This document shows positions 8,876 through 18,078 of a stretch of 64,000 bases of DNA, in pieces (the stretch's first letter is position 1; the number at the start of each line of letters is the position of its first letter). Made by a program: the position numbers and the translations under genes. The stretch covers positions 107,784-171,783 of the forward strand of contig JBHLMQ010000002.1 of NCBI GenBank assembly GCA_048938005.1, written 5' to 3'. The notes under the pieces are model-generated. The model saw nothing but the letters and a program-made list of their open reading frames with translations, was not told the origin of the DNA and did no database searches. The stretch comes from Promethearchaeota archaeon. GTDB taxonomy: Archaea; Asgardarchaeota; Lokiarchaeia; Sigyniarchaeales; SOKP01.

Positions 8876-9052
8876 CTATTTAACTTAATTATAATGAGTT
8901 TTGAATTAGTAATAGTAATTAGATGTTTAAATAATTTGTTGAGCTTGAAAATGTTAAAATCACATTTTATAGCATTAACTGGGAGTTAGGCTAAAGGTAG
9001 AAATTACAGAAAGGAGGTTTAATAAAAGAAAAGTAAAAAAAAATTTTATAAT

Positions 9053-9319
9053 TTAAGCGCTAATCAAACGGAATAATATTGAAGCATGAGGAATATAGAA
9101 CTCATCTCTTTTCTTTATCACAACAGTGTGAAAATATTCAGCAAGCCCCAGAAATCCACGAATTACTGACTCATCTTCTTCAAATCTAAAAATTACAGCG
9201 GCTATAGCAGATCCCGTATTGAAACTAACCTTATCATATACTCTTTCATCGATTAGAGGGATTTTTAATTCGTTGACAATTTCATAAACCCGTTTAATGA
9301 AGAGTTCTCGCTTAGGCAT
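9053..9319 (-). CDS. Hypothetical protein (88 aa)
   Basis: Clean ATG ORF with globular composition, divergent from the proline-rich gene. Confidence 0.7.
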   Translation of the reverse strand: MPKRELFIKRVYEIVNELKIPLIDERVYDKVSFNTGSAIAAVIFRFEEDESVIRGFLGLAEYFHTVVIKKRDEFYIPHASILFRLISA

Positions 9320-9613
9320 TTTTCATAAACCTTTTTAATTTATTCTATTCTAAAGAATTTTTTAGAAAATTGAATTTTTAATAATTTTTAAACTTACTAA
9401 TGAAATATGTTATATAATATTATTAGTTTAAGTTTTTTAATAATTAACGTTTTTCTAGATGTAGATAATATTGGGATTTATAGACTCAATTAAGAATGGA
9501 ATAAAAATATAAATACATATTAATATATTTTATATAATTAAAATATAAAGATTATAAATAGTAATTTTAATTTTAATCAATTTTTCAATAATATTAGAGG
9601 AATTGAGTAGAAC

Positions 9614-10309
9614 GTGGTCTCAAAAGAACAGAAGAAAATTGAACGAGTTATAAACTTTATGAAAAAGGGTTTAAATTCTCTTGCTGATGATCTGGAAGAA
9701 ACAGTTAAGGGAATTAATGATTTTATCAAATCTTTAGCAAAGGCTCAGAAGGATTTGAAGGAAGTTTCTGTTGGTGAAGAAGTTTTAACCGTTAGTACTT
9801 CCTCTAAAAAAATTGTTGCAGCAACTGATGGTCAAGCTAAAACAGCTGCTGCTAGTACATTATTTAGTTTATTAAGTACTAGCGGAGGTGCTGGAGCTCC
9901 AGTACCTGCAGCTGCTCCTGCAACAACACTCCCAGCAGCACCCGCACCCCCAGGTGCTGGGCCTCCATCTGCGCCAAAACCCCCTAGCGCAGGACCACCT
10001 ACAAAAGCTGGGCCACCAACTGCACCACCAAGTAGTGTTGGGCCTCCAAGAAAGCCTGGTTTACCACCAGCTCCAAAATTACCTCCAACAGGCGGTGCAC
10101 CCCCTGTAGCACCAAGTGCAAGCCCCCCAAAAGCCCCTAGTGGACCAACAAGCGCGAGTCCCCCAAGTGCCCCAGCATTTGCAAAAAGACCACCTGCACC
10201 AGCGGCAGCACCAACAACAGCGGTTAAAGTAGGAGGAGGGTTGGGATCTCTTCGAGACGAAATGTTAGACGAATTAAATCGTCTAAAGAAAATTATGAGA
10301 GGCGAATAA
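9614..10309 (+). CDS. Coiled-coil + proline-rich protein with C-terminal WH2-like/VASP-like helix
   Basis: GTG start after GAGG. N-terminal heptad helices, about 115 aa Pro/Ala/Gly-rich tract, and the end GGGLGSLRDEMLDELNRLKKIMRGE. Confidence 0.8.
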   Translation: MVSKEQKKIERVINFMKKGLNSLADDLEETVKGINDFIKSLAKAQKDLKEVSVGEEVLTVSTSSKKIVAATDGQAKTAAASTLFSLLSTSGGAGAPVPAAAPATTLPAAPAPPGAGPPSAPKPPSAGPPTKAGPPTAPPSSVGPPRKPGLPPAPKLPPTGGAPPVAPSASPPKAPSGPTSASPPSAPAFAKRPPAPAAAPTTAVKVGGGLGSLRDEMLDELNRLKKIMRGE

Positions 10310-10316
10310 CGGCCCC

Positions 10317-10352
10317 TAAGATTTTTAATCTTCATTTTTCCTTAAAATCTTA
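10317..10352 (+). terminator. Inverted repeat after the proline-rich gene (possible terminator)
   Basis: TAAGATTTT ... AAAATCTTA arms just after the stop codon, in T-rich context. Confidence 0.3.
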
Positions 10353-10587
10353 TTTCTATTATTTAGATATAGAGAGGATAAAAGATATAGAGATATTACG
10401 CGCAAATGTGATAATATTATCTTAAAAAGACTTCGATTTCTACTTTTTTTGTATTAAGTGAATTTATTATCCATTAAAGATTCTATTAGCATAGAAGTAG
10501 GAAGGTTTTTTTAGTAAATAAAATAATATATTAGATAGTGTCATTTTGGGTAGTTATCTTATTAATTAATTTGAAGTATAATAAAGT

Positions 10588-11709
10588 ATGGGAAATTTAA
10601 CAGTTGTACTAGATATTGGTCAATTTAGTACCAAAATTGGATTCGCAGGAGAGGATAGTCCCTCACAAGTCTTTCTAACGATGGTTGGAAAACCAAAATA
10701 TCAAAGTGTGGGTGCCAATTATGAATCTAAGGCTTCTCGTGAAAATGAAATATATGTAGGTGACGAAATTCAATCTATTGGATTATATAAAATTTTTCAT
10801 CCTATCGAAAAAGGAATTGTTATTGATTGGAATCATTTTGAGAATATTATTGATTACATTTTCTATAATCTAAGAGTAGATCCTACACTTGTTAATATCT
10901 TATTTGCTGTGCATCCATTATTTCCATATAAAGATTTAGAAAAAATATTTGAACTTTTTTTAGAAAAATATATGTGCATGAGTTTTTATCCTGTACTAGA
11001 TTCCATGTTAACTTTATACTCAGGCGGTTTCCAAACGGGATTAATTATAGAAATTGGAGATAGTAATACAAGAATAGTTCCGATTTATGAAGGATATAAA
11101 TTAGAACATGCAGTAAGGATTTTGGATATTGGTGGAAGAGTGTTAACTCGTCATATGGAACAGACTCTAGAATCTATTGGATGGTCTGTTGATTCTTCAA
11201 TACGAAGAGAGTTGGTAAGGGTTTTAAAAGAAAAATCATGTTTTGTCTCATTAGATTATAATGAAGATCTAAAGCGAAGTGAACAATATGAGAAGGAATA
11301 TTCTTTACCTGATGGTTCTACAATCTCACTTAATAAAGAAAGATTTATTGTACCGGAATTATTGTTTAAGCCATCATCAGAATTAGAAGAAGATGCATTA
11401 CATGTAGCTATTATGGATGTAATTGAAGCGTGTGATTTAGACATTCGTCCGGAATTGTTGAATAACATCTTTTTATCGGGTGGGTCCAGTATGTTTCCAA
11501 ATTTAAAATCTCGCATTTATCAAGAATTAGAATTGGAATTAGCACGAAGAAAGAAAAAAGATCAAGTGATCAGAATAATAGCACCGATGGAAAGAACCTT
11601 TTCTGTATGGATTGGTGGATCAATCTTAGCGATGATCCCGGAATTTTCCCAAAATTGGATTACTCGCGCTAAGTATTTTAATGAAGGGATACCACCTAAT
11701 TTACTATGA
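10588..11709 (+). CDS. Actin-related protein (divergent Asgard actin/Arp)
   Basis: Collinear with actin: KIGFAGEDSP, YVGDE, VPIYEGY, LPDG, LSGGSSMFP, FSVWIGGSILA. Confidence 0.97.
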   Translation: MGNLTVVLDIGQFSTKIGFAGEDSPSQVFLTMVGKPKYQSVGANYESKASRENEIYVGDEIQSIGLYKIFHPIEKGIVIDWNHFENIIDYIFYNLRVDPTLVNILFAVHPLFPYKDLEKIFELFLEKYMCMSFYPVLDSMLTLYSGGFQTGLIIEIGDSNTRIVPIYEGYKLEHAVRILDIGGRVLTRHMEQTLESIGWSVDSSIRRELVRVLKEKSCFVSLDYNEDLKRSEQYEKEYSLPDGSTISLNKERFIVPELLFKPSSELEEDALHVAIMDVIEACDLDIRPELLNNIFLSGGSSMFPNLKSRIYQELELELARRKKKDQVIRIIAPMERTFSVWIGGSILAMIPEFSQNWITRAKYFNEGIPPNLL

Positions 11710-11828
11710 TATATCCTATCTTAATTTTTTAGAATATCCAGATAATATTAAGATAATATAATTTGTTAAATAAGAATTCTCAATATTAATTCATATTATA
11801 ACCACTCCTTTTAAAGGTAAATTAGAAA

Positions 11829-12167
11829 ATGGAAAATTTTGGTGAAGATAGGTTTTATAAACCGAGCTATTCACTTTTATTTAACAAAATTAAAGATATC
11901 AAAACCCCAATAAAAAATGAAATATTAATCGCTCTTCTTGATGGGCAATGGCATTCTGAATTGGAATTAATAAGAGTTACTAAAAAACAACATGTATTTG
12001 TCGGAGCTGTAACTTTAGGGACAATGATTCACGTATTAAATCATACTATTAAAAATAATTATCTTCAAAAAAAGATTGTAAATGGTAAAATGTATTATAA
12101 GTTGAACGATAATTATGTTGGATTAACAAGAGCAGCATATAGATTCGATGCAAACGATTTTCTTTAA
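11829..12167 (+). CDS. Small winged-helix protein
   Basis: EILIALLDGQWHSELELIR...YLQKKIVNGKMYYKL fits a wHTH pattern. Confidence 0.6.
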   Translation: MENFGEDRFYKPSYSLLFNKIKDIKTPIKNEILIALLDGQWHSELELIRVTKKQHVFVGAVTLGTMIHVLNHTIKNNYLQKKIVNGKMYYKLNDNYVGLTRAAYRFDANDFL

Positions 12168-12184
12168 TAATATTAAATAGCGTT

Positions 12185-14314
12185 TCATTTTTTTATGCAT
12201 TGATCTTTATAAATTTTATATTCTTCGCAATTTGAACAAAATTTGGAACGATTCTCATTCCAGCATTTAGGACATAAATAATAAGTAAATGATTTATTAC
12301 TTTTTTTAAGACTAACTTTAAAAATATTAAAATTACAAATAGAACAGGTAGAATTTAATAATTCTAATTTTCCATTCTTAGGTAAAGACAAAAATTTATT
12401 ACAGTTTTTATCAGAACAAACTAAGAATCTTTTATTTTTAATATTAATGAATTTCATTTGATTTTTATTACAAAATGGACAATTTGAAGATGTGAGTGGG
12501 ATTGTATAATCAATCTTATAATTATCAACTTTAGAAACTAATGTGTGTTTATTTATTAGGAACTTATCAAATAGTTGTAAAAATTCTTTTCTTGTCTCAT
12601 CTACAACATCCTTCATATTTTTTTTCTCATTTTTAATTTCTTCAAGTTTTATTTCCACCCTTTTAGTAAAGTCTGGTTTTAAAAATGGTAACCATATTTC
12701 AATTAAATTTTCAATAATAAATTTACCTAGATCCGTTATAATATAATGAAATTTTATTCTTTCTGTTAATTCACGAGTTTTTAATAATTTTATTATTATT
12801 GGTCGAGTTGCTTTAGTGCCTAGGTGATTTCTTTCCATTAGTTTTAGCAATGTTGGATCAGTATACCTAGGAGGGGGTTTTGTTTCTTTTTGGATAAATA
12901 ATATCTCCTTTATTGGGATTTTATCACCAATGATTTGGATTTCTTCATCGTATTTCGGTTTAAGAAAAGGGGCAATTTCTAAAAATCCTGGAGAGATTAG
13001 TGATACAACTTGAGCAATAAATGGCTCCTCTTTAATTAGGATTTTTAAGAACTGTTTTGATTCCAAAGCTTCTTCTCCAAAAAGCGCAAGATAATGACGA
13101 GCAAGAAGATCATAGACTCTTTTTTGTAAATTGTTTTCGAATCTTGAACTATTTAGCTCTAAACTTTCAAGAGGAGTGATAGGGGGGTGGTCTCCCATAT
13201 CTCTCTTTCCTTTGGTAGGCTTTATTCTCTTATTTTTTAATAAATCTATAGTATAGTTCTTAAACTGAGTATGTAAAGTAAATTTTTGTAAAATTTCACG
13301 ATGATTAAAATCTGATTTATAAACATCACTATCAGTTCTAGGGTAAGAAATTATTTTATTCAAATACAAAGCATTCATGGTGCGCATTGCCACATTTGCT
13401 GAAATTCTTAAATTTTTTGTTAACAGAACTAAAGCTTTTGATGTATTCAATGGAGTTGGTGGAGACCTTTTAATTACATCTTTGGAATTATCAATAATCC
13501 TTGCTATTTTTTCATTTTTAATTTTTTGAAAAATTTGTCTTGCTTCTACTTCTTGTTGTTTTTTGAAAGGATTAAGTTGATGATGCGCTCTAAAAACACC
13601 ACTTTCGTGAAATAAATCAGCATCAATTAGAAAATAAGGTTCTGGAATAAAATTTAAAATCTCTTGTTCTCTAAGATATATTAAATATAAAAGACAGGTC
13701 TGGACGCGACCAATTGAAGTAAACCTTACTCTAAATTTATTTAATAATGGGCGTAGAGTATTTGTTAGTTCTCTAGTAGCTGAAAATCCAATAAATGCAT
13801 CAATAATTGATCTTGCTTCTCCTGATTCACCCCAACTATATTTAGGTATTATTAGATTATTAAATTTATTTATTATTTCATTTTTTTGAAGGGAACTAAG
13901 CCATAATTGCGATATTTGTATATTTGGATTTGCTTGTCTTACAAATGGAAGTGCATCAAATAATCCAATATTACACCCTTCAATATCAGCATCAGTTCCT
14001 ATGATACAATGATCACACTTTTTCGCATATTCTTTAACTGCTTTAATATATTGTCCCAAACCACTGATTTGGAATTTCTTAATGGATTTCGGATTTGTTA
14101 TTATTTCTCGCGGAGGAGGGTTTGCCCAACTTTTAAAAGCATCAGTATTTCTATATTCGAGGAGATGGCCACGTAAAGGAATTACAAAGATATTTTTTGA
14201 ATTAATCCAATATATATTTAATGATTTTGTTTTTTTAATTGTTTTGACTTGCCCTAATGCATTTGCTATAGCTTCTGCGGCCTTGTTTTTTTCAGTAATA
14301 ATTAATGTTGCCAT
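12185..14314 (-). CDS. topA: Type IA DNA topoisomerase with C-terminal zinc ribbons
   Basis: LIITEK, GTDADIEG, SIGRVQT, ISYPRTDS (catalytic Tyr), DHPPITP, LGTKATR and C-terminal CxxC pairs. Confidence 0.95.
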   Translation of the reverse strand: MATLIITEKNKAAEAIANALGQVKTIKKTKSLNIYWINSKNIFVIPLRGHLLEYRNTDAFKSWANPPPREIITNPKSIKKFQISGLGQYIKAVKEYAKKCDHCIIGTDADIEGCNIGLFDALPFVRQANPNIQISQLWLSSLQKNEIINKFNNLIIPKYSWGESGEARSIIDAFIGFSATRELTNTLRPLLNKFRVRFTSIGRVQTCLLYLIYLREQEILNFIPEPYFLIDADLFHESGVFRAHHQLNPFKKQQEVEARQIFQKIKNEKIARIIDNSKDVIKRSPPTPLNTSKALVLLTKNLRISANVAMRTMNALYLNKIISYPRTDSDVYKSDFNHREILQKFTLHTQFKNYTIDLLKNKRIKPTKGKRDMGDHPPITPLESLELNSSRFENNLQKRVYDLLARHYLALFGEEALESKQFLKILIKEEPFIAQVVSLISPGFLEIAPFLKPKYDEEIQIIGDKIPIKEILFIQKETKPPPRYTDPTLLKLMERNHLGTKATRPIIIKLLKTRELTERIKFHYIITDLGKFIIENLIEIWLPFLKPDFTKRVEIKLEEIKNEKKNMKDVVDETRKEFLQLFDKFLINKHTLVSKVDNYKIDYTIPLTSSNCPFCNKNQMKFINIKNKRFLVCSDKNCNKFLSLPKNGKLELLNSTCSICNFNIFKVSLKKSNKSFTYYLCPKCWNENRSKFCSNCEEYKIYKDQCIKK

Positions 14315-14505: not shown

Positions 14506-17500
14506 TTAAATTGGTAATGTAAAGGTAAATGTTGAGCCTTTATTTTGCCCTTCCGAACTTGCCCAAATTTTACCTCCATGAGCATTAACAATTCCTTTAG
14601 TAATATACAAACCTAAACCAGTCCCTGCATCCTTAATATTAAGATCTTCATTTAGATTTGATGGCATAATTCTTTCAAATTTTTTAAATAACCTTTCAAT
14701 TTCATCTTTGGCTAACCCAATTCCATTATCTTTTATTTCAAAGACATATTCATTATCCTCTTTTTTTGCAGAAATCTCTATCCATCTATAGTCAGGAGAA
14801 AATTTAATCGCATTTGAAATCAAGTTAGTAAAAACCGCAAAAATACGCGTAGGATCTACATTCAACATGATTTCATGTTCAATATTTAAAATTATCTCAA
14901 GATTCTTTTCATTGATTAAATAACTCAACTCATCAAGACAATCATTGATAATTTTGGTGACATTTATTAATTCCTTCTGCAATTTTAATTCCTCTTCATC
15001 AATTTTCAAGACATCTAAAAGCTGATCCATTAAAACTTCTAATCTTTTAATATTTCTCTGGATGGTTATTAAATCCTGTGTAACTTCAAGATTTAATTGG
15101 TTCCTATATTTCATAAGGATATAATCTGTGTATCCTGAAATTGAAATTAATGGTGTTTTTAATTCATGTGCTGCCATTGTTATAAAATCATTTTTGACTT
15201 TGTCAAGTTTTTTCAATTCAATATTCTGTTCTCTTAATTTCTTCTCAGACTCTAATAATTCTTGTTCTAATCTGAATTTTTCTGTAATATCAGAAAAAGT
15301 TCCTTCAATTACCATAGGATTATTATTATCATCTCTTATAAGATGCGCATTTACTTGTACAACAATATTCTCTCCATTTTTCTTTTTTAAAGGTACGATG
15401 TAATTGCGAATTACTCCGTTTTTTTCTAATTGTCTTCTATATTTTTCATGATCCTTCGGTTTTTGCCAAGAGAATGGAGGCGGTTGTCCAATTAGATTTT
15501 CACGGAGATCATATCCCGCTATTTTACAAAATGCTGGATTATGATATAATAGATTTCCTTCCCATTGTGCCATATAGTATCCTTCATCCAAATTGGTTAT
15601 CATATTTCTGAAGTTTTCCTCAGATTCTATAAGTTGATTTTCCATTTTCTTGTTTTCAGTGATATCCCGTATAATCGTTATTACTTGGCTTACTTTATTC
15701 TCGCTAAAGATTGGAATTTTCCGAGTTTCAGTAAAAATTTCGATATAATTTAAAGTAATACTCCCTTCAGTAAGAAGGGTCTCCCCGCTATTAAAAACAT
15801 GTTCGTACTCGTCCCGAACTTTATCAGGTAAAAATGGAAATGCTTCAAAAACATTCTGACCAACAAGTTCTTTATCAATATCTAAATTCATGAGCCAAGA
15901 GCTAAAGGCAGAGTTGGATAAAATAATATTTAAATCTCTATCGACAACATGTAGAGGATCACTTAATGAATTAATTGTAGTACGATATTGCTGTTCAGAT
16001 TCTATTAGATCTTTTGTCCGCTCTAGTACCTTCTGCTCTAATTCTCTATTTAATTTTTTTAATTCTTCTTGCGATTTCTTTAATTCTTGATCAGCAATTT
16101 TTTTCTCTGTAACATCTTGTATTATTACCTGAAAAAAAGTTTCATCACCAATTTCAACTAGAGAATCATTTATACCTATCCACATTAATTTTCCATCTTT
16201 CGATCTAGAAATTTGAACCTCAAGTGGTTCTGGGACTATACCTTTTAAGACAATTTGGTATCTTTCTTTAAAAAGAGGTAAAACCTTTTCAGGTTTTATG
16301 CCTATATCTAAGAAATTTTGGTTGATTATTTCCTCAATTTTCCTATTAAAGAATTTTTCAGTAGCAGGATTACAATCTATTATTTTTCCTTTTCTATCAA
16401 CTAAAATAATTGAATATGGGGAACTTTCGAATAAATGACGATATTTTGTTTCTGATTCTTTTATCTTCTGCTCAGCATTTTTCTTTTCAGTAATATCCTG
16501 AATTATAGCCTGAGTAAGGGTTTTATCTCCAATTTTAACCAAGGAACTATGGATAGACAACCAAATTTTTGTCCCATTAACTCTTGTGAGTTGAAATTCT
16601 AAGGGTCCTAATCTCTCACCTTTTAAAAATCGCTTAAATCGATCTTTCAATATATTTATGAGATATTCAGATCTTTTGAGAACTGATAAAACTTCTGAAA
16701 ATTTTTTTCCAATTAGATCTTTAATTTCTAAAACAGAGAGTAAATCACTCATAATTGAATTACAATCAATTATAATTCCTTCTTCATCCATAAGCCATAT
16801 ACTATATGGTGAACTCTCAAATAAATGACGATACTTAATTTCAGATTCCTTTATTTTTTCTTCGAGAGAGAATTTTTCAGTAATATTTCGTGCTAAACCA
16901 CTAAATCCAATTTTTTTTCCATCTAAATCGTATCTTAAATATACCGAAGATTCACATGTTACTAAATCTCCACTTTTATTTCGAAATTGGTATTGGAAAT
17001 CTGACTCTGGTTGCTCTGTTTCATATACAATTCGATATACTTCAAAAATCTTATTTTTATTTTCTTCATCTACAAAAGTCTGAAAGTTCATTCCTAACAA
17101 TTCATTTCTTGGAGTTCCTTGAAGTTCACATAGGGCATCATTAAAAAAGGTGAAATTTCCATTCAGATCAACTTCAAAGTAACTTTCTTTAATATTTTCA
17201 AGTATTCCCCGATATTTTTCTTCAGATTCTTTTAATTTTTGTTCTGCAATTTTACGCATTGTAATATCTTCATAGGTAACGAGTATCCCCATTACTTTCC
17301 CCCTTGAATCATGTAATGGAATTCTGTTAATCTCAAAACAAGTCTGCTCACCTTTTGAAGTAATTAATGATTCGATAACATTATATTCGGGAGTATCATT
17401 TTTCATAATTTCAGCTTCCCTATCTTGAATTATTTTGCCAGGATCCTTAAGCCAAATTAGATCTTTATCAGTTCTTCCAATAATATTCGTAGGCTCTTTT

Positions 17501-18078
17501 ATTCTATTTAAAAGAGCAAAATTCTTATTGCATCCCATATAGACCAAGTTTCTATCTTTCCAATAGATGAGTTGAGGTATATTATCCAGTATTAATTCCA
17601 ACATTTCTCTTGTTTTCTGCACAAAAGTTTTTCCTTCTCTTGTTTGAAGAAGTTTCCAAAATTGTATCTCTGGTAAAGAATCTGCTAATTCATCGAAGCG
17701 AGCGTGACTTTTATTTAAATCAAATTCAAATTTTTTAAACTTGGTAATATCCCTACAGATTAAGAACACTTTTTTAGCATTATCTTCATAATCTATGAAA
17801 CTTTTTCCCTTAATTTCAAACCATCTAAATGGATTATTATCATATTTGATTTGAGCTTCTCCCATTCCATGACCAAATTTGAATATATCTTTTATTAATG
17901 TTATTACTCGTTTGAGATCCTCTAGACGAATAAAATCATCAATTTTTTTCTTTTCGGTAAAAGCTTGAAAATTAGTATATTCACATCGGTTCTTATCATT
18001 TAGGATAAATATAAGATCATCAATATTTTCAGAGAAAATCTGACCAATTTTACTGTGACTTTTAAACGTGCTTGTCAT
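14506..18078 (-). CDS. Cytoplasmic multi-PAS sensor histidine kinase
   Basis: About 7 PAS/PAC repeats (ESE.KYR...DITE), HisKA AHELKTPL, NLISNAIKF, DNGIG, GTGLGLY. Confidence 0.95.
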   Translation of the reverse strand: MTSTFKSHSKIGQIFSENIDDLIFILNDKNRCEYTNFQAFTEKKKIDDFIRLEDLKRVITLIKDIFKFGHGMGEAQIKYDNNPFRWFEIKGKSFIDYEDNAKKVFLICRDITKFKKFEFDLNKSHARFDELADSLPEIQFWKLLQTREGKTFVQKTREMLELILDNIPQLIYWKDRNLVYMGCNKNFALLNRIKEPTNIIGRTDKDLIWLKDPGKIIQDREAEIMKNDTPEYNVIESLITSKGEQTCFEINRIPLHDSRGKVMGILVTYEDITMRKIAEQKLKESEEKYRGILENIKESYFEVDLNGNFTFFNDALCELQGTPRNELLGMNFQTFVDEENKNKIFEVYRIVYETEQPESDFQYQFRNKSGDLVTCESSVYLRYDLDGKKIGFSGLARNITEKFSLEEKIKESEIKYRHLFESSPYSIWLMDEEGIIIDCNSIMSDLLSVLEIKDLIGKKFSEVLSVLKRSEYLINILKDRFKRFLKGERLGPLEFQLTRVNGTKIWLSIHSSLVKIGDKTLTQAIIQDITEKKNAEQKIKESETKYRHLFESSPYSIILVDRKGKIIDCNPATEKFFNRKIEEIINQNFLDIGIKPEKVLPLFKERYQIVLKGIVPEPLEVQISRSKDGKLMWIGINDSLVEIGDETFFQVIIQDVTEKKIADQELKKSQEELKKLNRELEQKVLERTKDLIESEQQYRTTINSLSDPLHVVDRDLNIILSNSAFSSWLMNLDIDKELVGQNVFEAFPFLPDKVRDEYEHVFNSGETLLTEGSITLNYIEIFTETRKIPIFSENKVSQVITIIRDITENKKMENQLIESEENFRNMITNLDEGYYMAQWEGNLLYHNPAFCKIAGYDLRENLIGQPPPFSWQKPKDHEKYRRQLEKNGVIRNYIVPLKKKNGENIVVQVNAHLIRDDNNNPMVIEGTFSDITEKFRLEQELLESEKKLREQNIELKKLDKVKNDFITMAAHELKTPLISISGYTDYILMKYRNQLNLEVTQDLITIQRNIKRLEVLMDQLLDVLKIDEEELKLQKELINVTKIINDCLDELSYLINEKNLEIILNIEHEIMLNVDPTRIFAVFTNLISNAIKFSPDYRWIEISAKKEDNEYVFEIKDNGIGLAKDEIERLFKKFERIMPSNLNEDLNIKDAGTGLGLYITKGIVNAHGGKIWASSEGQNKGSTFTFTLPI

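Follow-up and report, generated by a model that had tools for sequence, protein, structure and literature searches.

The window analyzed here, 64,000 nucleotides of contig JBHLMQ010000002.1 from a Promethearchaeota archaeon, carries at positions 10588..11709 of its forward strand an open reading frame (ORF) that begins with ATG and encodes an actin paralogue of 373 amino acids plus stop. We find that its product is functional, under strong constraint, and part of an order-restricted family of actin paralogues. Among 301 sampled Asgard genomes, the family is confined to the window's own GTDB family (f1) and a sister family within the same order (f2), which is unlike the Asgard-wide distribution of Lokiactin. 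Its members have an intact, selected actin fold in which the catalytic constellation is replaced, the DNase I-binding loop (D-loop) is weakly constrained, and the barbed-end cleft is highly constrained. In f1 members, a fixed Asp/Arg pair takes the place of the catalytic residues Q137 and H161 of actin. From these comparisons of sequence we hold, with moderate confidence, that the paralogue is most likely an actin-related protein (Arp)-like heterotypic partner that would act via its barbed face, and that it is unlikely to form a bulk polymer.

An actin fold with a replaced catalytic site

The Pfam Actin profile (PF00022) matches residues 5-367 of the paralogue with 304.8 bits, the curated gathering cut-off being 27. 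When the PDB was searched by sequence, the top score of 294.9 bits went to an archaeal 'HC1 actin', followed by eukaryotic actins at ~280 bits. The AF2 model is confident over the full protein (predicted local distance difference test, pLDDT, 92.6; predicted template modelling score, pTM, 0.89) and low only at the D-loop block (pLDDT 55). Compared with solved actins by Foldseek, the model reaches TMq values of 0.87-0.91, and among the 49 matches listed Foldseek returned solely entries with actin chains. Model and matches together show that the four-subdomain actin fold is present.

Per-site counts are based on the 120 protein clusters closest to the paralogue, which share 69-97% identity with it. 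At 136 of the 373 positions, the same residue occurs in at least 118 of these clusters. Ratios of non-synonymous to synonymous substitution rates (dN/dS; NG86 method) against 28 orthologous genes lie between 0.032 and 0.084 in 24 pairs, dS being saturated in the other four. Given a dN/dS of 0.03-0.08, decay is excluded, and the ORF cannot be a pseudogene or a decaying Lokiactin copy.

Substitutions were read from HMMER alignments with actins, that of yeast among them, and the coordinates of sub-features, which refer to the forward strand of the window unless marked (-), were confirmed by translation. In the P1 phosphate loop (10612..10635; DIGQFSTK, corresponding to D11-K18 of actin), the DNGSG of actin is changed to DIGQF (paralogue residues D9-F13) through the exchanges of S14 for Q and G15 for F; Q12 is found in 116 and F13 in 118 of the 120 clusters. 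The P2 phosphate loop (11050..11073; paralogue E155-R162) reads EIGDSNTR instead of DSGDGVTH and thereby contains D154E, G158S, and H161R, with E155 in 119/120 clusters and both S159 and R162 in all 120. The position of Q137 is occupied by D138 (FYPVLDSMLTLY; 119/120 clusters), which lies on a helix (10984..11040) together with the cleft residues Y144, F148 (R147 position), and Q149. K75 (10810..10812) stands at the position of H73 and occurs in 102/120 clusters; this site is variable in f2.

As a comparison set outside the family, we used 73 actin-like rows comprising 13 Lokiactins, the genome's two other paralogues, and 58 cluster representatives. D at 137, R at 161, and Q at 14 are absent from all of these rows, and F is found once at position 15 and once at the R147 position. 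All 13 Lokiactins carry S, T, or D at 14, along with G15, Q137, D154, G158, H161, and H73; at the latter six positions the paralogue has F, D, E, S, R, and K, respectively. The preliminary description of this ORF had listed by eye the changes at P1, Q137, P2, H73, the D-loop, the hydrophobic plug, and the ARRKKKDQ insertion as well as four retained cleft residues, all of which are present in the HMMER alignments. The catalytic rewiring that it proposed is now borne out as a family-wide, selected signature.

Q137 and H161 of actin position and activate the hydrolytic water. Across f1 and f2, S14 is replaced by Q or E (S in one cluster), G15 by F or Y (S in one f2 member), R147 by F, G158 by S or A, and H161 by R. 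Specific to f1 are the exchanges of Q137 for D and of D154 for E (one cluster keeps D) and the retention of D157; f2 members have G at the Q137 position (D in genus g11) and A or S at that of D157. The equivalents of D11, G13, K18, G156, R210, K213, E214, G301/302, Y143, I345, and L346 are kept in all members, and the nucleotide-holding scaffold of the f1 paralogue, as read from its sequence, is complete, the D157 equivalent included. Given that the scaffold is kept but Q137 and H161 are replaced, and that S14Q, G15F, D154E, and G158S are added, the paralogue probably binds ATP or ADP, and its hydrolysis would be slow or proceed by another route based on a carboxylate. Glutamate acts as general base in ParM, MreB, and Hsp70. 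The exchanges of Q137 for G and of D157 for A or S in f2 argue that selection on the family is not for hydrolysis of the actin type.

The host genome (3.72 Mb in 101 contigs, 95% complete) encodes four actin homologues, including a canonical Lokiactin and this paralogue (442 versus 300 bits to Pfam Actin). The host's Lokiactin is located on another contig (locus L001), carries DNGTG, Q137, DGVSH, and H73, and is 40% identical to the paralogue. Clustering of the sequence library at 50% identity leaves the paralogue family as one representative, after which the score falls from 813 to 365 bits. The family is supported at 100% by the Shimodaira-Hasegawa-like approximate likelihood ratio test (SH-aLRT) in a quick tree of 90 rows, and forms a 100/100 clade with a stem of ~1.24 substitutions per site in a careful tree of 54 rows. 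For the latter, 37 of the 90 rows were dropped, including the three longest branches (the genome's own paralogue 4, P0257, and P0227), and an orthologue from genome G324 was added. Short-branched Lokiactins make up the backbone of the careful tree, and eukaryotic actins form, together with Arp1, a separate clade (96/94) without the paralogue family. Of ten representatives looked up by cluster, three had a name, and three clades were then labelled via PDB search; Arp2 and Arp3 sequences were left out of the tree, and among the best 150 representatives Arp1 was present and no Arp2/3 was identified. Forcing the family together with the host's Lokiactin cost 15.07 log-likelihood units (approximately unbiased test, p = 0.033), which is a marginal result for a group that was chosen after the tree had been seen.

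The separate Lokiactin elsewhere in the genome, the identity of 40%, and the family's own 100/100 clade rule out that the paralogue is the canonical Lokiactin, as the preliminary description had anticipated. The two proteins share fold and size, D157, and the residues listed above as kept in all family members. The paralogue differs from Lokiactin by S14Q, G15F, H73K, Q137D, R147F, T148Q, D154E, G158S, and H161R, and further by its separate clade, its restriction to one order, a four-residue insert, a different C-terminus, and an unconstrained D-loop.

Orthologues with 62-100% identity were found in 61 of 68 f1 genomes, with one further partial copy, and orthologues with 49-58% identity in all seven f2 genomes. 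The best matches in the other sampled families reach only 42-46% identity, on a par with Lokiactins. Submitter names of some public members (Thor-, Odin-, Heimdall-, and Hermodarchaeota) conflict with a distribution in one order, and we take them as loose labels of metagenome-assembled genomes.

According to the article text, 'Ca. Lokiarchaeum ossiferum' has four actin homologues, one Lokiactin and three 'ARPs', and for one of the latter, UYP44126.1, a tree placement and an expression level from quantitative reverse transcription PCR (RT-qPCR) are reported (PMC9834061). The primer 82F published there for UYP44126.1 matches exactly inside a 373-amino-acid ORF of G324, within the 100/100 family clade, and the family is therefore already in print as an uncharacterized Asgard ARP. 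The G324 member shares with the window paralogue the G[QE][FY] motif, F at the R147 position, R at that of H161, and the four-residue insert. Unlike the window paralogue, it belongs to f2, has G at 137 and S at D157, and has no polybasic insert; its upstream neighbor is a Ras-family GTPase gene and not the proline-rich gene of the window described below. A literature search, with figures and supplements outside its scope, found no account of the family's sequence features or function.

The two remaining actin homologues of the host have features of their own. The third (505 amino acids; L003 949-2466 (-), contig C72; Pfam Actin 215.5 bits) contains an insertion in its C-terminal half with two zinc-ribbon motifs (Zn_ribbon_3, DZR). 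The fourth and most divergent (398 amino acids, 154 bits; L004 1438-2634 (-), contig C100) has upstream a gene for a Lys/Pro-containing coiled-coil protein of 261 amino acids (L004 2695-3480 (-)), which has no Pfam match and carries QLKKV in its C-terminal part.

Contact surfaces and the proposed role

Along the actin filament, each subunit receives the D-loop of its neighbor in its barbed-end cleft. The D-loop region of the paralogue (residues 38-56; 10699..10755) is five residues longer than that of eukaryotic actin and three residues longer than those of HC1 actin and the genome's own Lokiactin, and its length varies within the family. Regional conservation was calculated as mean pairwise identity in 11 f1 rows, 18 family rows, and 13 Lokiactins. 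For the whole protein, this value is 0.71 in f1 and 0.76 in Lokiactins. The D-loop is the least conserved region in f1 (0.31, versus 0.80 in Lokiactins) and the helix with D138, Y144, and F148 the most conserved one (0.92, versus 0.88), and the second cleft segment reaches 0.80 (versus 0.84). A D-loop that is free to vary, set against a barbed-end cleft that is the most conserved part of the protein, is new evidence that fits a role other than that of a bulk filament.

The cleft strand and helix (I346, L347, I350, P351, E352, and N356) and the C-terminus GIPPNLL are encoded at 11614..11706. The preliminary description had considered the binding cleft for WH2 domains and profilin to be kept, and this applies to the four residues it named: Y143, Y169, I345, and L346 of actin recur as Y144, Y170, I346, and L347. 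It does not apply to at least four other cleft positions, which are altered (R147F, T148Q, T351E, and M355N), nor to the C-terminal tail, where GIPPNLL replaces the GPSIVHRKCF of actin. In all, about half of the cleft is kept. The HRKCF tail, a profilin contact of actin, is absent; the C-termini of f1 and f2 members contain GIP or GIS and then close with LL or a near variant.

Two further sites are altered. The plug region (11371..11391; PSSELEE) is one residue shorter than that of actin, and the FIGM or VLGL plug of actins corresponds to S-(gap)-E-L. At plug position 264, the 120 clusters have mainly S (31), I (27), L (22), or M (13), and the acidic one-residue deletion is restricted to part of f1, other members having LFNL, LMSL, or LINS. 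The view of the protein as plug-deficient is thus correct for the paralogue and part of f1 but fails for deeper members, which have LFNL or LMSL without the deletion. The second site is ARRKKKDQ (11542..11565), a four-residue insertion that follows helix 306-320 in the alignments and the AF2 model. The insertion is common to f1 and f2, and its polybasic character is confined to f1; five of its positions are each basic in 99-120 of the 120 clusters.

The weak constraint on the D-loop, combined with the best-conserved and uniformly remodelled cleft (R147F), suggests a heterotypic partner engaging through its barbed face as the most likely role. In one version of this proposal, the paralogue would cap the pointed end of Lokiactin or seed its nucleation, much as an Arp does; in another, it would be a receptor for a conserved helical ligand. 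The barbed faces of Arp2 and Arp3 template actin, and their own pointed-end contacts do not polymerize. With its conserved cleft and free D-loop, the paralogue resembles them in the sense of a works-like analogy alone. Arp2 and Arp3 keep Q137 and H161 and hydrolyze ATP, whereas the paralogue lacks both residues, and, compared with Arp2 and Arp3, it is actin-sized with small insertions. The profiles of the Arp2/3 partner subunits ARPC4 (PF05856) and ARPC2 (p34-Arc, PF04045) gave no match in the host genome at its 95% completeness, and control genomes were silent as well. Arp1 (centractin) is actin-sized like the paralogue, but its representatives (P0181, 599 bits to PDB Arp1) keep all canonical site residues and fall inside the eukaryotic clade, outside of which the paralogue family is placed. 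We also count in favor of a heterotypic partner that, as stated in the article text, all three ARPs were expressed at lower levels than Lokiactin in culture (PMC9834061).

Several points weigh against this proposal. The D-loop is not featureless, given two invariant residues (K37 and Y38) and the presence of Y45 in 101/120 clusters, and a non-canonical self-contact is therefore possible. The hydrophobic plug of the deeper members (LFNL/LMSL, without deletion) is what a filament former would have. Furthermore, the insertion lies in a loop that in actin (322-325) is part of the longitudinal contact and could also disturb the binding of Lokiactin. In the main text of a study on Lokiactin co-immunoprecipitation, the enriched proteins listed are profilin, five gelsolins, and an ARF GTPase, with no ARP among them (PMC13716822). 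This points away from a stable association of the paralogue with Lokiactin. Finally, binding, capping, or nucleation of Lokiactin by the paralogue is something that we infer by analogy, and 'Arp-like' describes a behavior.

Some of the same observations would suit an independent filament former, that is, a second specialized actin polymer with non-canonical contacts and Asp138 as general base. The complete fold with all four subdomains, the intact nucleotide scaffold in f1, the hydrophobic plug of deeper members, and the very strong purifying selection are all compatible with such a polymer, and the conserved cleft together with Y38 and Y45 of the D-loop could make the self-contact. However, no region is less conserved than the D-loop, whose length also varies, f2 members lack D157 and mostly have G at 137, which is hard to square with nucleotide-driven dynamics, and transcript levels in the one culture tested were below those of Lokiactin (PMC9834061). 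We regard this as the main alternative but consider it unlikely.

The proline-rich gene and other neighbors

Upstream of the paralogue, a gene at 9614..10309 encodes a proline-rich (Pro-rich) protein of 231 amino acids, consisting of an N-terminal helix, a conserved AKTAAASTLFSLLSG segment, three to nine GPPKAP-type repeats, and two invariant elements, LPPAPKLPP and the C-terminal GGGLGSLRDEMLDELNRLKKIMRGE (10232-10306). In f1, this C-terminus follows the pattern GGGL[GS]SLRDEML[DE]EL[NTA]RLKKIMRG. Similar to WH2 and verprolin proteins, it has a proline-rich region, an amphipathic helix, and L-K-K-I near the C-terminus. Unlike in these, the motif is not followed by an acidic or central region, and a search of Pfam, WH2 included, with residues 183-231 returned 0 families at E≤10. 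The C-terminal helix could be WH2-like or ESCRT-III MIM1-like; its motif resembles the MIM1 helix, and by eye the fit to the MIM1 consensus is only partial. WH2-like LKKT motifs are reported in Asgard 2DGel gelsolins (PMC9433394), and in the article texts covered by our literature search Asgard WH2-like motifs were reported inside gelsolins only. An Atlas search with the Pro-rich protein returned solely its own unnamed Promethearchaeota cluster.

Taken more broadly, the Pro-rich family is Asgard-wide and was found in 105/301 sampled genomes (loci L067-L082 and L088-L103). Its members are ~200-320 amino acids long, have at the N-terminus either a helix or a transmembrane segment plus coiled-coil, contain proline-rich repeats (GPPKAP, PPTGPPTA, or GGPPSGGPP), and share a conserved C-terminal helix with the pattern L-R/K-x-E-M-L-x-E-L-x-R-L-K-K-I/L-M. 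The family has no counterpart in Pfam. Two overlapping ORFs in the window, one Gly/Ala-rich and one Leu/Gln-rich (9832-10335 (-) and 9888-10109 (+)), are mirror-frame artefacts of the CCN-rich Pro-rich coding sequence and not genes.

The preliminary description had seen a fit with a partner role of the paralogue alongside this upstream protein, and one possible form of such a partnership would be that the C-terminal helix with LKKI docks in the remodelled cleft, the two genes together supplying an assembly factor in the manner of WASP or verprolin with Arp. Among 60 f1 genomes in which both genes were located, the Pro-rich gene lies upstream of the actin gene on the same strand and within ~2 kb in 58 (directly adjacent in 16, separated by about one gene in 38, and at ~2 kb in four). 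The gene in the gap belongs to the PIG-L family where inspected (73.8 bits), and the adjacency of the Pro-rich and actin genes persists where this intervening gene has been lost. In addition, the C-terminal motif and the cleft are both (nearly) invariant in f1. Yet in f2 the Pro-rich gene is present in 5/5 genomes and linked to the actin gene in 0/5 (43-72 kb apart or on other contigs). Pro-rich family members with this C-terminal motif are also found where the actin paralogue is missing (f4 1/1, f5 4/4, and f14 16/19), and membrane-anchored forms are found in f9, f15, and f18, which likewise have no such actin. An unrelated type IA DNA topoisomerase gene (12185..14314 (-), convergent; Pfam Topoisom_bac 287.8 bits, Toprim 45 bits), which served as synteny control, is kept in 10/16 f1 loci, and gene order at these loci is therefore conservative in general. 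T-runs after the stop codon of the Pro-rich gene in the window hint at separate transcripts, and the lack of a Pfam WH2 match also speaks against docking of this kind. A look-up of RNA sequencing runs for window positions 9000-12200 returned none. Both genes are absent from six f1 genomes (G291, G057, G077, G168, G198, and G300), which is not independent evidence because physical linkage in incomplete assemblies would give the same result. What remains of the proposed partnership is synteny at the level of one family, and we regard a dedicated partnership as improbable.

We give a similarly low probability to the wider idea that an Arp-like actin and the Asgard-wide protein with coiled-coil, poly-(GPPKAP), and C-terminal helix-LKKI might form an archaeal nucleation or elongation module. 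Such a two-protein module would be analogous to WASP or verprolin with Arp, or to Ena/VASP, and the actin of the sister family lies beside a Ras-family GTPase gene.

This GTPase gene precedes the actin gene on the same strand in the f2 genera g10 and g12 (L085 3066-3656, L086 4267-4860, and L087 1790-2359); the L085 and L087 copies match Pfam Ras with 138-142 bits, and the L086 copy was judged by eye. In many f1 genomes, the gene directly upstream of actin encodes a PIG-L de-N-acetylase (L068 3821-4567 plus 16 further loci); the f2 genus g11 (L083, L084) also has a PIG-L gene, which abuts or overlaps the actin gene from upstream. PIG-L is hence the widest-spread neighbor of the actin paralogue, and it is missing from that position in the window. 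Downstream of actin, a gene at 11829..12167 encodes a protein of 112 amino acids with a conserved ...YYKLSDNYVGLTRAAY, winged-helix-like by eye only, which ends in ...YYKLNDNYVGLTRAAY, is found in 13/16 f1 loci, and is duplicated in some of them; it has no Pfam match.

Together with the RRKKK insert conserved in f1 and the degenerate catalytic site of f2, the winged-helix-like protein and the topoisomerase would be in keeping with a non-cytoskeletal scaffold on nucleic acid or chromatin that uses its polybasic insert as contact. Nuclear Arps, which would be the counterparts, hold ATP without turnover. However, the insert is not basic in f2, where the neighbors also differ (Ras-family GTPase or PIG-L), the winged-helix reading was made by eye without support from Pfam, and the conserved surface is the actin-type cleft and not the insert. 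We therefore consider such a scaffold quite improbable. That the ORF is the organism's Lokiactin itself or a decaying copy might be suggested by its actin size and by actins as best PDB and Foldseek matches, but it has practically no probability given the host's own Lokiactin elsewhere at 40% identity, the separate 100/100 clade, and the low dN/dS reported above.

On the other side of the Pro-rich gene, a small gene at 9053..9319 (-) encodes a protein of 87 amino acids. Homologues of 87-96 amino acids with conserved KIPLIDERV... and F-Y-I-P-H adjoin the Pro-rich gene in f1, f4, f5, and f14. The AF2 model of the window copy (pLDDT 91.1) has the order alpha-beta-beta-alpha-beta-beta-beta; a Foldseek search of the PDB gave no match at E≤0.001, a wide VIA-align search reached a best Z of 4.5, which is below the meaningful level, and an Atlas search returned weak, unnamed matches only. 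Farther downstream in the window, 14506-18078 (-) contains an ORF of 1190 amino acids in which inspection by eye suggests a histidine-kinase region at the C-terminus and several PAS-like repeats.

Implications for archaeal actins

Asgard archaea are the best model for the origin of the eukaryotic actin system. To our knowledge, only Lokiactin, profilins, and gelsolins have been characterized in this group so far, and the ARPs have only been placed in a tree. One ARP family now gains a testable description, which comprises the Asp/Arg swap, a free D-loop combined with a fixed, remodelled cleft, a distribution at the level of one order, and conserved neighbors (the adaptor-like Pro-rich protein, a PIG-L enzyme, or a Ras-family GTPase). 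If the paralogue caps or seeds Lokiactin, division of labor among actins, the logic of the Arps, would predate eukaryotes. If it polymerizes alone, archaea would have a second actin cytoskeleton, one that runs on different chemistry. Lastly, if an Arp, a proline-rich adaptor, and small-GTPase input do form a module, regulated actin nucleation would predate eukaryotes.

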